A DNA stretch of 64,000 bases from Erysipelotrichaceae bacterium (GCA_015059185.1 SVAY01000008.1:1587-65586); one strand, 5' to 3'; shown: positions 55,563 through 59,771, counted from the first letter of the stretch. The notes: a model not told the origin generated them from the sequence alone. Numbers and translations: made by a program.

Positions 55563-55596
55563 ATTCTATCACCTTGATAGCAACATAAGTGCCACA
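55563..55596 (-). promoter_or_regulatory. Promoter TGTGGCA-N4-TGTTGCT-N10-TAGAAT
   Basis: Same geometry as 58564-58597 and 59738-59771. Confidence 0.75.
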
Positions 55597-55653
55597 AAAA
55601 TAAAATATTTTAATATTTTTAAGTATTTATTGTGGATATACGAAAATAGAATA

Positions 55654-56739
55654 CTATTCTTTACGTCTATCTATACCAGTAGTTTTATAATATTTAGCTT
55701 TATCTTGATACATCATCTTATCAGATATTTTCACCATATCTTCAAGCGTCTCTTTATCGCTAGAAGAATAACAATATCCAACAGAGCAACTATATTTAGT
55801 TTCACTAACATTAGTTTTGATATCATCCACTAATTCGATTAATTCTTTTTCACTTGTCTTACGACAGACGATGATAAACTCATCTCCACCAATACGATAG
55901 ACAAGGCGACGTCCACTGATGGACTTCTTGAAGCAGTCAGCGAGAGTGATTAAAGCTTGGTCACCTGCGATATGCCCTTCATTATCATTAATTGTTTTAA
56001 GCCCATTCATATCAATAGATACAACGCCGGTAATATCTTTCTTATGATTCTTAATTGCAGCGTAGTAAGCTTGACGATTAAGTAGTCCGGTTAATGGATC
56101 TTTCTTCGTTAGTTGTAAAATCAAGAACACGTAATAAACAAATATTGCGACCGCAACTGTTGGACAGAATACTTTTGAATATTCTTTACCCATAAGGAAA
56201 GGAAGGATGAGTCCTGATCCAAAGGCAAAGGCTAAAAACGCAATTGGAATTATTTCAGTCGCTAATTTATTACTTTGTCTAACTAAGACATAAACAAGAG
56301 CAACAGAATATAAACCAGCGGCAATATAAGGTAAATAGCCTAAAGGACCTCTTACCATCTCTCCATCATCACCAATGCTAAACACGATACCAGTAAAGAT
56401 AGAGATGAAATTAAACACCGCAAATATAGCGGCTGGAATAAGAACGTACCAACGAGCGCGATGAACAAGAGTATATAAAATGAAAGCAATGATAAGTGGG
56501 GTAGCACTATATCTAATTGCAATTATTGTTGCACGTGCTGTATTATATCCACCAATTTCTACTAAGTAGAACTCAATAAAGACGATGATGGATAAAACAA
56601 ACACTGCAGCGGCTAATATATATAAGCGTCGAATAGTTTTTTTATCAAGGAATATAGTTATTTTTAATACGATGACAAAAGCAAGCAAGATTAAGATCAA
56701 TACCCAGTTAAATGTCATGTAACTTGTAAATACTTCCAT
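55654..56739 (-). CDS. Membrane-bound GGDEF diguanylate cyclase
   Basis: Multi-TM N-terminus; DPLTGLLNR, DMNGLKTINDNEGHIAGD, RIGGDEF; no RxxD I-site. Confidence 0.9.
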   Translation of the reverse strand: MEVFTSYMTFNWVLILILLAFVIVLKITIFLDKKTIRRLYILAAAVFVLSIIVFIEFYLVEIGGYNTARATIIAIRYSATPLIIAFILYTLVHRARWYVLIPAAIFAVFNFISIFTGIVFSIGDDGEMVRGPLGYLPYIAAGLYSVALVYVLVRQSNKLATEIIPIAFLAFAFGSGLILPFLMGKEYSKVFCPTVAVAIFVYYVFLILQLTKKDPLTGLLNRQAYYAAIKNHKKDITGVVSIDMNGLKTINDNEGHIAGDQALITLADCFKKSISGRRLVYRIGGDEFIIVCRKTSEKELIELVDDIKTNVSETKYSCSVGYCYSSSDKETLEDMVKISDKMMYQDKAKYYKTTGIDRRKE

Positions 56740-56971
56740 AAATTGTCAAACCCATTCACTGCTAGTGAACTTATATTAAATATAACCCTTTAAATTTATT
56801 TAACAACCTTTAAATTGTTTACACTATTATCAACTATCATTAATTGATTATAGTTACGTCGTGCTTTATGATTTTTACAAAAATATATTTCAAAAGTCTA
56901 GCTTTAAGATTGTTATAAAAGAAAAATACTCCCCACTATGAAGGAAAGGAGTATTGTTCTAGATACCTCTA

Positions 56972-58534
56972 TTATTGGTTTTTGATTTCGTTTTCGATAT
57001 TGTTTTCAATATTGTTATTTAATTCATTTTCAATAATGTTGTTATTGTTATGATTATCAACAGCAACTTCTTCTTCATCCAAGAATGGTTCTTTATAAAC
57101 TGGAAGGAAACTGCTGAGTTCTCTATCGGCTTGCGCTTCTAATTGGGCTTCCTTATCAAGCGCTTCCTTAGTTGCTAAACACATTGTCGCTCTAGCTAAA
57201 GCAGTACCGCTTAAGTTAGCTAAATCCTCTCTAGAATGAACGCCTTTATGGGTTAAGTAATACTCGGCATTTTCCCTAAGAGCTTGTTTATCTAAGTAAC
57301 CATTAGCCTTTGGATTATTATATTCTTCAAAAGCATTGATAAAATCTTTCCATTGTTGGCTGGTGTTACGTCTAATATATCTTTCCCAAATACCACCTTT
57401 AAGTTGGCCTCTCACCGTATGGTAGTCAAAATCGCCTTGTCTACCACGTCCTCTATTAACTTCTTTTCTCCATAAGCTTAAATAGGTTTCTTCACCGACC
57501 CTATTTACGCATCTAAGTCTAAATGGGCCAGGACCATTTTTAGTTCCAACTTTAAGTACTAAGTCTTCATCTCTAAATACATTGCATAAGTCTTTAAAAG
57601 TATAATTTATACCAAGTTCTGGGCCTTGATGGTTTTCTTCATAGAGTACTTGAGTAGTAAGGAACTTACTATTAACTTTGCCCTTAGCTTCTTCAATATT
57701 AGTAAAGTAGTTTTTAGGCATATAGGTAGTAGCGTTAGTTTCATCCACACTATCAAGGATGTATTGATTAAGGGCTTCACTATAATTTTGAGGATTATTA
57801 TCGTTATAATTCTTAATTGCTTCCGCTTGTTCTTTATATAAGTCTGGGAAAGCAAAATGTTCTGGATCACCAGCAACTCTAGCAAGTCTAGCTGGGTAAG
57901 CAATAATCTTTAACGGTTCTCTTAAATCATTATCAAATGCCATCGCAAATTCATCATTTTGATTTATCATGGCTGCTGATCTTCTAAACTGCTCTACTGA
58001 ATCTGCTAAATCAATGATTTCATGATTGTTCTTATAATATTCTAAGATGGCTTTTTTATCATCACCGACTGATGCAAGTTGCTTTGGATCATAGTTAAGA
58101 ACTTTCTTATAAAGCATTGCTATAACCTTATTAGGATTAGATTGGAATTCTTGATATAACCTCTTATTATATGCTCTAGCATATGCAGTATCATCAGTCT
58201 TAAAGGCTTTAGCCACCAAGAATGAAGCATCGTTATTTACTACTGGACCGTGCGCTTGAGTAAGTTCAGTTAAGATTTCTTGTTGTCTATTATGTATATC
58301 TTTAATCTCGTTAGCTAAACGATAAACAGCAACTTCTTCTTCGTTATCCATTTTTTCAAAAAGACTATTATCGAATTCTAAATACGGAACTGGTTGATCT
58401 CCTGATTGTGCTGCAAGAGAAGAACGACTTACGTCTTGACTAATGATGTCGTTAAATTTATCAACATACTCTTGATGTTTCTTTAATAACGCTTGTTTTT
58501 CTTCTTTAGTTAATGGCTGATATTTCTTTGGCAT
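56972..58534 (-). CDS. Hypothetical protein, family member 2 (shared C-terminal domain, Asn/Glu-rich tail)
   Basis: SQQWKDFINAFEEYNNP...YYLTHK aligns with the SK(Q/E)W..L..AY.DF.NP...Y.QHK block of its neighbours. Confidence 0.85.
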   Translation of the reverse strand: MPKKYQPLTKEEKQALLKKHQEYVDKFNDIISQDVSRSSLAAQSGDQPVPYLEFDNSLFEKMDNEEEVAVYRLANEIKDIHNRQQEILTELTQAHGPVVNNDASFLVAKAFKTDDTAYARAYNKRLYQEFQSNPNKVIAMLYKKVLNYDPKQLASVGDDKKAILEYYKNNHEIIDLADSVEQFRRSAAMINQNDEFAMAFDNDLREPLKIIAYPARLARVAGDPEHFAFPDLYKEQAEAIKNYNDNNPQNYSEALNQYILDSVDETNATTYMPKNYFTNIEEAKGKVNSKFLTTQVLYEENHQGPELGINYTFKDLCNVFRDEDLVLKVGTKNGPGPFRLRCVNRVGEETYLSLWRKEVNRGRGRQGDFDYHTVRGQLKGGIWERYIRRNTSQQWKDFINAFEEYNNPKANGYLDKQALRENAEYYLTHKGVHSREDLANLSGTALARATMCLATKEALDKEAQLEAQADRELSSFLPVYKEPFLDEEEVAVDNHNNNNIIENELNNNIENNIENEIKNQ

Positions 58535-58563
58535 AACTATTTCCCCCTATCTAACCTAGATAC

Positions 58564-58597
58564 ATTCTATAACACTATATGTCACAAAAGTGCCACA
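58564..58597 (-). promoter_or_regulatory. Promoter TGTGGCA-N4-TGTGACA-N10-TAGAAT
   Basis: Same geometry as the other two copies. Confidence 0.75.
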
Positions 58598-58690
58598 AAT
58601 GTAAAAATATTAATAACATATATTCTTTATTACAAAGTAATATAGAAAAACGCCTATGAAACCACAGGCGTTATTATTCTTTTTTGTTGA

Positions 58691-59710
58691 TTATTTAGAA
58701 ACAGCCGCTTCTTCTTCAACAGGAGCTTGGTCTTTTACTTGCTCTTTTTCTTTAACCACTTTATCTTCTTGAATAGCGTTATTGAATGGTTCTACATCTT
58801 TAATATCGTTTTCAATCTTATTAGCAAATTCTTCTTGGTCTAAGTCGATAACTTTATTTTGCGCTGGAAGATCTTCATATTTGATATTTAATGCTTTACT
58901 AGTATCCACTAAGTTATGGAAAGCAGCATCTAATCTGTTTTGTTCATTAGCAGCTTTTAACACACTGATAGCAAAGCTAACTTTAGCTTTTTCAGAAGTA
59001 TTGAGTTTATCAAATGCATTTTCTGGAAGTTCAACATCTTTTCCCCAACCTGGGAATTTGTGTTGGAAGTAGTCAAGTGCTGCGCCAGCTAAGTTTCTAA
59101 AATCACAATATTTTTCATTGTGTGGGTTTTGGAAATCTTCATATGCTGCCTCTAAAGCCTTCCATTCTTTAGAAGAAGAGGAGAAGATCGCATACCATTT
59201 ATGAGTTTTAGCAGTTTTAAGAGTATCTTCTAATGCTTTTCTACCACCTAAACTAGCTTCCACTCTAGCTTTGACACCGATAGCTTTAGAAATCTCATCG
59301 ACTCCATTTACATCAATTGCAAATTCATCGTTCATACACTTAGCGATTTCTTTACAGTTTTCTTTTAAGTGTTCTTGATCTTTGATAGTGAAATCTGCTT
59401 TCTCAAGTTGATCAGCAAGCTTATTAGCTTCACCTTTAATGTATTCGGTTGGATTACCTAAGAACATTTGAGCGGCTAAGCTTGGTTTTTCTTTTGGATT
59501 ATTCTTGATAGCTTCTGCAATCTTTGCACGGGCAAGATGAACGGCACCAGAAAGAGAATAATCTTTAGTTGTACTCATATCATGATTCAAAATGTATCTA
59601 GTAGCATAGGCTAATTTACCATCGATGGACTTAATCTCATCGAGGTTATTATACATATCAGCGACGGATACATATTTGACTTGGTTTAGGTTTTTCTTAA
59701 TCTTTGGCAT
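58691..59710 (-). CDS. Hypothetical protein, family member 3
   Basis: Full-length paralog of 54481-55506 (YATRYIL.HDMS...DYSLSG, IKGEANK, GGRK.LED, VIDLDQ). Confidence 0.85.
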   Translation of the reverse strand: MPKIKKNLNQVKYVSVADMYNNLDEIKSIDGKLAYATRYILNHDMSTTKDYSLSGAVHLARAKIAEAIKNNPKEKPSLAAQMFLGNPTEYIKGEANKLADQLEKADFTIKDQEHLKENCKEIAKCMNDEFAIDVNGVDEISKAIGVKARVEASLGGRKALEDTLKTAKTHKWYAIFSSSSKEWKALEAAYEDFQNPHNEKYCDFRNLAGAALDYFQHKFPGWGKDVELPENAFDKLNTSEKAKVSFAISVLKAANEQNRLDAAFHNLVDTSKALNIKYEDLPAQNKVIDLDQEEFANKIENDIKDVEPFNNAIQEDKVVKEKEQVKDQAPVEEEAAVSK

Positions 59711-59737
59711 AACTGGTTTCTCCTTTGTTACGAAACT

Positions 59738-59771
59738 ATCTTACAACACATGGTGCCACAAAGTTGCCACA
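59738..59771 (-). promoter_or_regulatory. Promoter TGTGGCA-N4-TGTGGCA-N10-TAAGAT
   Basis: Same geometry as the other two copies. Confidence 0.75.

Follow-up and report, generated by a model that had tools for sequence, protein, structure and literature searches.

Here, we describe a promoter motif found in a stretch of 64,000 nucleotides from an Erysipelotrichaceae bacterium (GCA_015059185.1, SVAY01000008.1:1587-65586), which we refer to at its full length as the window. Between positions 55563 and 59771, three paralogous genes on the minus strand are each preceded by a direct repeat of the heptamer TGTGGCA or a close variant, with 4 bp between the two copies and exactly 10 bp between the second copy and a -10 box. 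We think it likely, from the sequence evidence laid out below, that these sites are activator-dependent sigma-A promoters, that they are read by a 256-aa response regulator, and that in related genera the same regulator and motif belong to a circuit resembling quorum sensing. The evidence consists of the strict geometry of the motif, its conservation across genomes, and its co-occurrence and adjacency with the regulator gene.

A conserved repeat-pair motif

All three repeat pairs are present on the minus strand as the first-pass annotation of the window had written them, and chance does not account for them: 0.10 such pairs are expected in the window, and none of 100 dinucleotide-preserving shuffles reaches three. 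The window's genome (1.31 Mb, 34% G+C, 94% complete; its contigs carry C-numbers below) contains nine occurrences of TGTGGCA-N4-TGT, seven of which are intergenic with the same geometry, four of these on other contigs. With a weight matrix, the total rises to 12: five more sites begin with the heptamer TGTTGCA, and beyond these the score drops from 22.4 to a background of 14.0. The relaxed form of the motif, TGTKGCA-N4-TGTKRCW-N10-TAnnnT, likewise has 12 occurrences.

The geometry is strict. When the spacer in TGTKGCA-Nx-TGTKRCW was varied from 0 to 12, the genome gave 12 matches at x=4, one at x=3 and none at any other value. A TAnAnT or TAnnAT hexamer stands exactly 10 nt downstream in 12 of 12 pairs, and in none of them at 5-9 or 11-14 nt. 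The 11-bp repeat period and the exact 10-bp distance to the -10 box, first reported for the window, thus hold for every site in the genome. The lack of a canonical -35 was also borne out, as a scan with the sigma-70 consensus called none of the three window promoters and found no -35 match. The AT-rich tract that had been reported upstream is better described as T-rich: the 9 nt before the first repeat are 53-61% T in 176 distinct sites (the set used for base composition at positions around the motif), while the A+T content of the 25 nt upstream exceeds the background only modestly (73% versus 68%).

It had been proposed that the motif defines a regulon that could be recovered genome-wide. The scan recovered the 12 promoters in the window's genome and found the motif in 43 of 301 genomes of the family, spread over 11 of 48 genera; a reversed-pattern control gave zero matches in every genome. 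An origin in gene duplication, with the upstream sequence copied along and no dedicated regulator, would have in its favor that all targets in the window's genome but two are paralogs of one family and that two of the window's genes are 47% identical. The family's proteins are nevertheless 15-47% identical to the first of these genes' products, and most paralogs 15-21%, yet the heptamers are almost invariant and the repeat spacing and -10 distance do not change, while spacers and flanks have diverged. The motif also precedes non-homologous genes: a pair encoding a membrane protein of integrative and conjugative elements (ICEs) and a VirB4, precursors of RiPPs (peptides made on the ribosome and modified after translation), and genes for HipA-like proteins, secreted proteins and Cys-rich peptides. 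Because the heptamers have persisted where everything around them has diverged, the motif is, on its sequence, under selection, and we give a duplication remnant practically no chance of being the explanation.

Promoter class

Several positions that the search pattern left free carry information. An extended -10 (TGn) is found in 109 of the 176 sites (62%), position 5 of the -10 box is A in 91%, and a pyrimidine (83%) followed by a purine (88%) stands 6 and 7 nt after the -10. This last signature agrees with the earlier prediction that transcripts would start 6-8 nt after the -10 boxes. Judged by these features, the sites are sigma-A promoters without a -35. The heptamers lie at about -40 to -34 and -29 to -23 which, by analogy, is the class-II arrangement of winged-helix activators. 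The assignment of the element to PhoB/OmpR-class activator geometry therefore stands (7-bp direct repeats with a period of 11 bp, set 10 bp before a sigma-A-type -10, no -35). The term 'pho-box-like' fits the architecture and fails for function, as the heptamer is not that of a pho box and there are no phosphate genes among the targets.

The repeats can also be parsed as sigma-54 promoters, with TGGCAC-N5-TTGCW as the -24/-12 element and a start near the 'TAnnAT', an alternative that the first-pass annotation had not raised. Two sites match this consensus perfectly, namely the third window site (TGGCAC-TTATG-TTGCT) and C8:76490 (TGGCAC-TCTTG-TTGCA), and the repeat period of 11 bp is also the distance between -24 and -12 elements. 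The GG is kept across the 176 sites, but the normally near-invariant GC at -12 is AC in about 59% of them (TGTGACA). The fixed TAnnAT at 10 nt, the frequent TGn and the pyrimidine-purine signature are features of the sigma-70 family that a sigma-54 promoter would not need. Moreover, no Sigma54_DBD match exceeds the cut-off in the window's genome (94% complete), and the same holds for 41 related genomes, the set's five motif bearers among them, while control genomes do score. We therefore give sigma-54 almost no credence. One sub-threshold Sigma54_DBD match within the window (17009-18244, minus strand) belongs to a 411-aa membrane protein with an N-terminal XRE-type helix-turn-helix (HTH) and is not RpoN.

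The candidate activator

Three candidate readers of the motif were compared by phyletic pattern: a 256-aa response regulator, a 178-aa sigma factor and a canonical OmpR regulator. The gene for the first lies at C8:95759-96526 of the window's genome, after a gene for a LytS-type histidine kinase (His_kinase, PF06580). Among 41 relatives, orthologs of this regulator, at 67-100% identity, are limited to the four genomes that have four or more motif sites, and a genome from the same genus as the window's (G001) has neither motif nor regulator. In the 301-genome family set, an ortholog was defined by at least 63% identity and is present in 44 genomes. Motif and regulator are found together in 37 genomes, the motif by itself in 6, the regulator by itself in 7 and neither in 251, which corresponds to an odds ratio of 221 (Fisher p=5e-34, with shared ancestry and linkage ignored). 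Of the six genomes with only the motif, five have a completeness of 91% or less. Presence of the motif and the regulator is patchy within genera.

Adjacency provides support that is independent of co-occurrence. The motif starts 9-67 nt after the stop codon of the regulator gene in 11 genomes from five genera, and lies within 1.2-1.7 kb of the gene in three more. On this sequence evidence, the 256-aa regulator is very probably the activator that reads the motif.

The 178-aa protein, of the size of extracytoplasmic function (ECF) or TcdR sigma factors (C18:5027-5560, minus strand), is the only alternative sigma in the window's genome, and the repeats might be its upstream promoter element, with no activator involved. 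Of its 15 carriers, 9 have the motif, an enrichment with an odds ratio of 11; its gene lies a few kb from one motif target in the window's genus, and in G111 it neighbors the regulator gene. Set against this, the sigma is absent from 34 of the 43 motif genomes, including those with 12-18 sites (G258, G236, G280), and six of its carriers have no motif. The -10 is of the housekeeping type with frequent TGn, and no known -35/-10 spacing accommodates two equal heptamers set 11 bp apart with the proximal one ending 10 nt before the -10. This makes the sigma factor very unlikely as the reader.

The protein contains Sigma70_r2 and Sigma70_r4 domains, and genomes of five other genera encode versions with 88-91% identity, a sign of probable horizontal spread. 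The G111 gene lies at C3:54094-54615, about 850 nt from the regulator gene at 55459-56217. The other 'Sigma70_r4' matches in the window's genome were dismissed: those on C9, C19 and C15 are a YlxM/UPF0122 protein, an XRE HTH protein and a fragment, respectively.

The third candidate is the only Trans_reg_C protein of the window's genome and its single canonical OmpR/PhoB regulator (C18:20497-21177, 227 aa, with a HisKA kinase). It is encoded 5 kb downstream of the motif-driven gene at C18:26301, on the same strand and within a string of VTC and DUF4956 genes. Close orthologs are confined to two genomes of the same genus, though; G008, with four motif sites, has just a 28% match, genomes of other families with 47-50% orthologs have no motif, and the gene is never adjacent to the motif in other genera. 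The canonical OmpR regulator is a highly improbable reader, about on a par with the sigma factor.

Given that the 256-aa regulator would bind the repeats directly, it could in principle repress from an operator overlapping the -35 region. A protein at -40 to -23 could occlude polymerase, and extended -10 promoters, 62% of the sites, can work without a -35. However, TGn sites are a minority in the window's genome and none has a usable -35, so that basal activity should be low. A constant phasing to the -10 (10 nt in 12 of 12) is what activators in contact with polymerase typically show, systems with the same geometry (PhoB and the Streptomyces antibiotic regulatory proteins, SARPs) are activators, and the feedback layout beside a peptide-export cassette in other genera fits activation. 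We infer activation and hold repression by the same protein to be unlikely.

Domains and fold of the regulator

The receiver domain of the 256-aa regulator matches Response_reg in Pfam with 81 bits, and its residues D8, D54, T82 and K102 are invariant in 38 orthologs. It resembles the receivers of LytR and BtsR, in alignments that end at about residue 120. Pfam has no LytTR or Trans_reg_C match for the protein, and no BTAD match at E<=1. The AlphaFold2 model (predicted local distance difference test, pLDDT, 79.5) shows the receiver followed by a beta-sheet, three helices and a beta-hairpin wing, and then about 40 residues with two short helices and low pLDDT at the end. The best full-length Foldseek matches, covering both domains, are all OmpR/PhoB proteins: DrrB, PrrA, DrrD, PhoP, CosR, RpaA and VanR. 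The output domain is thus predicted, from the model, to be an OmpR-type winged helix.

The partner kinase is a six-helix LytS-type histidine kinase. Its gene (His_kinase/HATPase_c) stands directly upstream of the regulator gene both in the window's genome and in G008, and the two kinases are 56% identical over their full length, membrane domain included.

Paralogs of the regulator provide a further comparison. In G026, from another family, the stop codon of a 30%-identical paralog gene falls inside a repeat-pair site (C8; L063, 2270-2303, plus strand) that reads ATTAGCA-CTTC-TTTAGCA-N10-TATTAT, with the same geometry and a different heptamer; the background for such repeats is 0.034 per kb per strand. 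This suggests that the whole regulator clade may read heptamers ending in GCA with an 11-bp period. Among the four paralogs checked, the one in G026 is the only one with this repeat geometry beside its gene; the G040 paralog has TTGTCAA-like repeats with a different spacing, and those of G009 and G036 have no such repeats beside the gene.

Several points weigh against the 256-aa regulator as the reader of the motif. The phyletic statistic takes no account of shared ancestry and linkage; mobile DNA might carry motif, regulator and targets as one set, and some other factor transferred along with them could be the reader. Six motif genomes have no regulator ortholog, and seven regulator genomes have no motif. 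In the window's genome, no motif follows the regulator gene or precedes the kinase gene, and we therefore rejected autoregulation there. The peptide cassette described below is absent from this genome by tblastn. The output domain has no Pfam match, and the description of the regulator as 'SARP-like' derives from the topology of the modeled fold, a database label and weak alignments. The label, given to the orthologs by the Joint Genome Institute (JGI), is 'two-component SAPR family response regulator'; the alignments are those of the output-domain profile with the PDB, whose sole matches were the SARPs EmbR (E=0.55) and AfsR (E=2.9), neither of them significant. With these points counted, co-occurrence, adjacency and fold still make the 256-aa protein most probably the regulator.

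Promoters and family genes in the window

The three paralogous genes, W1 to W3, each form a unit of their own, with a motif promoter in front and a terminator behind, all on the minus strand. Promoter 1 (59771-59738) reads TGTGGCA-ACTT-TGTGGCA-CCATGTGTTG-TAAGAT, with repeat 1 at 59771-59765, the spacer ACTT, repeat 2 at 59760-59754, a 10-nt spacer and the -10 box at 59743-59738; its predicted +1 is 59731 (G after C). It precedes W1 (58691..59710), which encodes an all-helical protein of 339 aa with a C-terminal module shared by the family and an acidic tail. An intrinsic terminator at 58649..58672 implies that W1 is monocistronic.

Promoter 2 (58597-58564) is TGTGGCA-CTTT-TGTGACA-TATAGTGTTA-TAGAAT: repeat 1 occupies 58597-58591 and repeat 2, after the spacer CTTT, 58586-58580, followed by the 10-nt spacer and a -10 box at 58569-58564, with the +1 predicted at 58557 (A after T). 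W2 (56972..58534; 520 aa) is a long subtype with the same C-terminal module as W1, and a terminator-like hairpin follows it at 56929..56948. Between W2 and W3 lies a gene without the motif for a membrane GGDEF diguanylate cyclase (55654-56739, minus strand); HD-GYP proteins are present elsewhere in the genome, as found by a genome scan.

Promoter 3 (55596-55563), TGTGGCA-CTTA-TGTTGCT-ATCAAGGTGA-TAGAAT, has repeat 1 at 55596-55590, the spacer CTTA, repeat 2 at 55585-55579 and the -10 box at 55568-55563. Its 10-nt spacer ends in TGA, an extended -10, and the predicted +1 is 55556 (G after C). W3 (54481..55506) encodes 341 aa, 47% identical to W1, and ends in a strong intrinsic terminator (54443..54465). 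A second terminator lies downstream at 53973-53954, before a nonribosomal peptide synthetase (NRPS) operon. As the two terminators separate this operon from promoter 3, it is probably outside the regulon, and we rejected it as a member.

The regulon in the window's genome

W1-W3 and other motif-driven products have in common the C-terminal module GG[WF]F-x-R-x-x-G-x-[TP]-S-[KR]-E-Y...Y-x-[ND]-P...Y-[LV]-x-H-K. An iterated profile hidden Markov model (HMM) of this module found exactly 11 members among the 1,222 open reading frames (ORFs) of at least 100 aa in the genome. The first-pass annotation had placed the promoter before 'all three family genes', which is true of the window and understates the case: 10 of the 11 family genes in the genome stand directly behind a motif, the -10 box ending 12-59 nt before the start codon, and the one exception follows a motif-driven member at a distance of 115 nt. 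The same range, 12-59 nt ahead of a start codon, applies to all the sites.

W1, W2 and W3 have no Pfam or NCBIfam match, and homologs of the W1 type form 17 clusters only, none of them with a functional name. The AlphaFold2 model of W1 is confident and all-helical (pLDDT 80, predicted template modeling score, pTM, 0.76), and a search of PDB folds gave no match, the best having E=0.26. One family member behind a motif promoter, from C20:89954 onward (L011:4955-7327, plus strand), is a 790-aa protein in which a PI3_PI4_kinase catalytic domain is fused to the family's C-terminal module; the kinase domain scores 35.9 bits against a cut-off of 27.1 and contains GNIDRHSGNML. The motif target at C18:26301 is followed by same-strand genes for VTC-domain, DUF4956 and Cthe_2159 proteins, and then by the OmpR-type regulator with its HisKA kinase (C18:12000-26300, L008).

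Two further motif sites remain, one before a gene truncated at the end of its contig (C18:233), the other before a pair of genes on C8. The pair encodes a 469-aa polytopic membrane protein of the NCBIfam Mollicute-ICE family MMCAP2_0566/Mbov_0396 and an 888-aa ATPase assigned by NCBIfam to Mbov_0397, 'VirB4_plasma' (592.6 bits against a cut-off of 590). It belongs to a same-strand gene string of about 27 kb (C8:70000-97833; L010, L201, L052) that has the kinase and regulator genes at its head and three motif promoters within it. In order, the string encodes the LytS-type kinase, the 256-aa regulator, a 1140-aa lipoprotein, a VirD4-like protein (CD1115 family), a 2578-aa protein, a pilin of type IV secretion systems (T4SS) and a 227-aa protein. 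A first motif then precedes the Mbov_0396-like membrane protein and the Mbov_0397-type VirB4, a second the family genes of 563 and 858 aa, and a third a 498-aa family gene and a TetR regulator. From its gene content, we identify the string as a Mollicute-ICE-type apparatus in a metagenome-assembled genome (MAG) labeled Erysipelotrichaceae. No relaxase or integrase was seen in C8:70000-97833.

The helical family's 11 dispersed proteins have in common the conserved C-terminal module with a charged tail after it, and one of them is the fusion to a PI3/PI4-kinase-like domain; they could serve the Mollicute-ICE-type T4SS whose motif they share, either as substrates or as accessory factors. This is a tentative idea, rather doubtful at present, and the link consists of co-regulation and vicinity only. 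If it were true, a quorum-sensing-like kinase and a SARP-like regulator would switch on the machine and its cargo together; a commensal of the rumen would then have a monoderm counterpart of the PmrA-Dot/Icm effector regulon. Such a commensal, no longer making the pheromone itself, might be listening to its neighbors.

Motif targets in other genera

A motif-driven cassette of four genes adjoins the regulator in G008, G218, G258, G232, G280 and G173. Its first gene encodes a precursor of 63-68 aa in which a Nif11-like double-glycine leader is followed by a short core that contains Cys and is rich in Lys and Arg. The second encodes a radical S-adenosylmethionine (SAM)/SPASM enzyme that reaches no NCBIfam cut-off; the 464-aa enzyme of G008 has ScmE as its best equivalog, with 101 bits against a cut-off of 400. 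The third and fourth genes encode a small membrane protein and an ABC exporter with a C39 peptidase. Precursor and enzyme possibly represent an undescribed class of RiPP, the product of which would be a candidate pheromone. Downstream of the GG, the conserved precursor has the core AC[ST]...K[KR]RK[IL][DE]x (L053:3824-5422 in G008, also L077-L081). The cassette promoter of G232 (C2; L079, plus strand, about 4498-4544) carries three in-register heptamers (tgtggcatttcTGTGGCActtcTGTGGCA), a number also seen at some SARP sites.

The space between the regulator and precursor genes repeatedly holds a gene for a HipA_C-like protein of about 400 aa, which often has a motif to itself (L053:5496-6692 in G008, L078 and L080). 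The HipA-like homolog in the window's genome, at C10:131-1243, is 23% identical, lies elsewhere in the genome and has no motif. Other targets include large secreted proteins and arrays of four to six genes, about 400 nt apart, each with a motif promoter of its own (L108, which is RUG12224 contig 15, L097 and L120). The arrays encode Cys-rich peptides of 89-101 aa with a Nif11-like ...ELTDEQLxAxSGG leader and CxxC...CxxC cores, which look like bacteriocins; one has a weak HVO_2753 zinc-finger match. The publicly named carriers are almost all MAGs from the rumen or ruminant gut labeled Erysipelotrichaceae, Bacilli or Bacillales bacterium.

Proposed mechanism and significance

In the mechanism that we propose, each site would depend on an activator, having a -10, often extended by TGn, and no -35. 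The heptamers TGT(G/T)(G/A)CA, one helical turn apart, would be bound by a head-to-tail dimer of the winged-helix response regulator, with the LytS-type kinase as the regulator's probable partner. The bound dimer would replace the -35 contact and recruit RNA polymerase by class-II activation, as PhoB and SARPs do. In related genera, where the kinase-regulator pair adjoins the motif-driven peptide/radical-SAM/C39 operons, it would also drive the bacteriocin-like peptide arrays; this adjacency and the arrays make the circuit look like a three-component peptide-pheromone system with positive feedback, the signal presumably being the peptide. For the window's genus, we propose that this regulator and motif control 12 promoters, including those of 10 of the 11 helical-family genes and of the pair encoding the membrane protein and the VirB4-like ATPase.

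These findings provide a precise cis-element, a named candidate regulator and a proposed signaling logic for uncultured small-genome Bacilli of the rumen and gut, whose regulation is almost unknown. They would assign a DNA target to a poorly studied type of regulator, in which a receiver is combined with a SARP-like winged helix and a LytS-type kinase. The motif also serves as a handle for genome mining, since one scan yields a radical-SAM cassette, peptide arrays, an ICE-type module and an uncharacterized protein family. Finally, a single regulator-motif pair appears to have been rewired between genera, from genes of peptide warfare or signaling in some to a T4SS-linked gene family in another.

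Comparison with known systems

Within the searchable literature, the coverage of which is incomplete, we found no description of the motif, the regulator subgroup or the cassette. No paper was found that brings together SARP, response regulator, radical SAM and quorum sensing for bacteria of the Clostridia type, and the heptamer by itself matched primers and unrelated text only.

One close architectural parallel is with PhoB. A pho box consists of two 7-bp direct repeats with 4-bp spacers, 10 bp upstream of the -10 and in place of a -35, and a PhoB-class dimer binds head to tail and recruits the sigma-70 polymerase. Class-II sites of the PhoB/OmpR group (CiaR, WalR, PhoP) share the repeat layout, the distance to the -10 and the replacement of the -35 with the motif described here. 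The heptamer is TGTKGCA, however, rather than of the CTGTCAT type, and the targets are the helical family, ICE genes and peptide cassettes, with no phosphate genes. The regulator also departs from the OmpR/PhoB pattern in its LytR/BtsR-like receiver and in a kinase with His_kinase (PF06580) instead of HisKA.

Peptide-pheromone systems such as PlnABCD, BlpRH, ComDE and AgrCA likewise place a polytopic kinase and a regulator beside a double-glycine peptide and a C39 exporter, with a direct-repeat pair upstream of a -10 without a -35 at each operon and apparent positive feedback. Their regulators have a LytTR output domain and use repeats of 9 bp that recur about every 21 bp, whereas a winged helix, 7-bp repeats and an 11-bp period are found or predicted here. 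Further differences are that the candidate pheromone is accompanied by a radical-SAM/SPASM enzyme, and that the window's genome has no cassette.

SARPs are another close parallel. A SARP-type heptamer is, for example, TCGAGxx, and the distance to the -10 is usually 8 bp; the heptamer here is TGTGGCA and the distance 10 bp. A regulator with an N-terminal phospho-receiver, no BTAD domain and a LytS-type kinase partner is also unlike a SARP, and the host in this case is a low-GC rumen MAG of the Bacilli/Erysipelotrichaceae type. The likeness lies in the DNA site and the predicted fold: the classical SARP site is built of directly repeated heptamers, in units of 11 bp, and overlaps the -35 (PMC10972967). 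As with the motif, the sites of ActII-ORF4, DnrI and AfsR comprise 7+4-bp direct repeats, two or three per site, that overlap or replace the -35, and SARPs use an OmpR-type winged helix, resembling the one predicted for the candidate regulator, to activate cluster-situated genes of secondary metabolism (PMC10972967).

At the level of the regulon, a counterpart is PmrA of Legionella and Coxiella, whose tandem-repeat site marks Dot/Icm effector genes and has been used to find them genome-wide (PMC12754634). In both cases, repeats of the OmpR-family type lie upstream of the -10 at dispersed genes that are co-regulated with a T4SS. PmrA controls proven effectors of a Gram-negative type IVB secretion system (T4BSS), while the system described here has a Mollicute-ICE-type, conjugation-like gene set and a helical family that is, at most, a candidate substrate. 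In sum, we regard the element as very probably a winged-helix, direct-repeat class-II activator site, with a candidate regulator of its own and a regulon that differs between genera.

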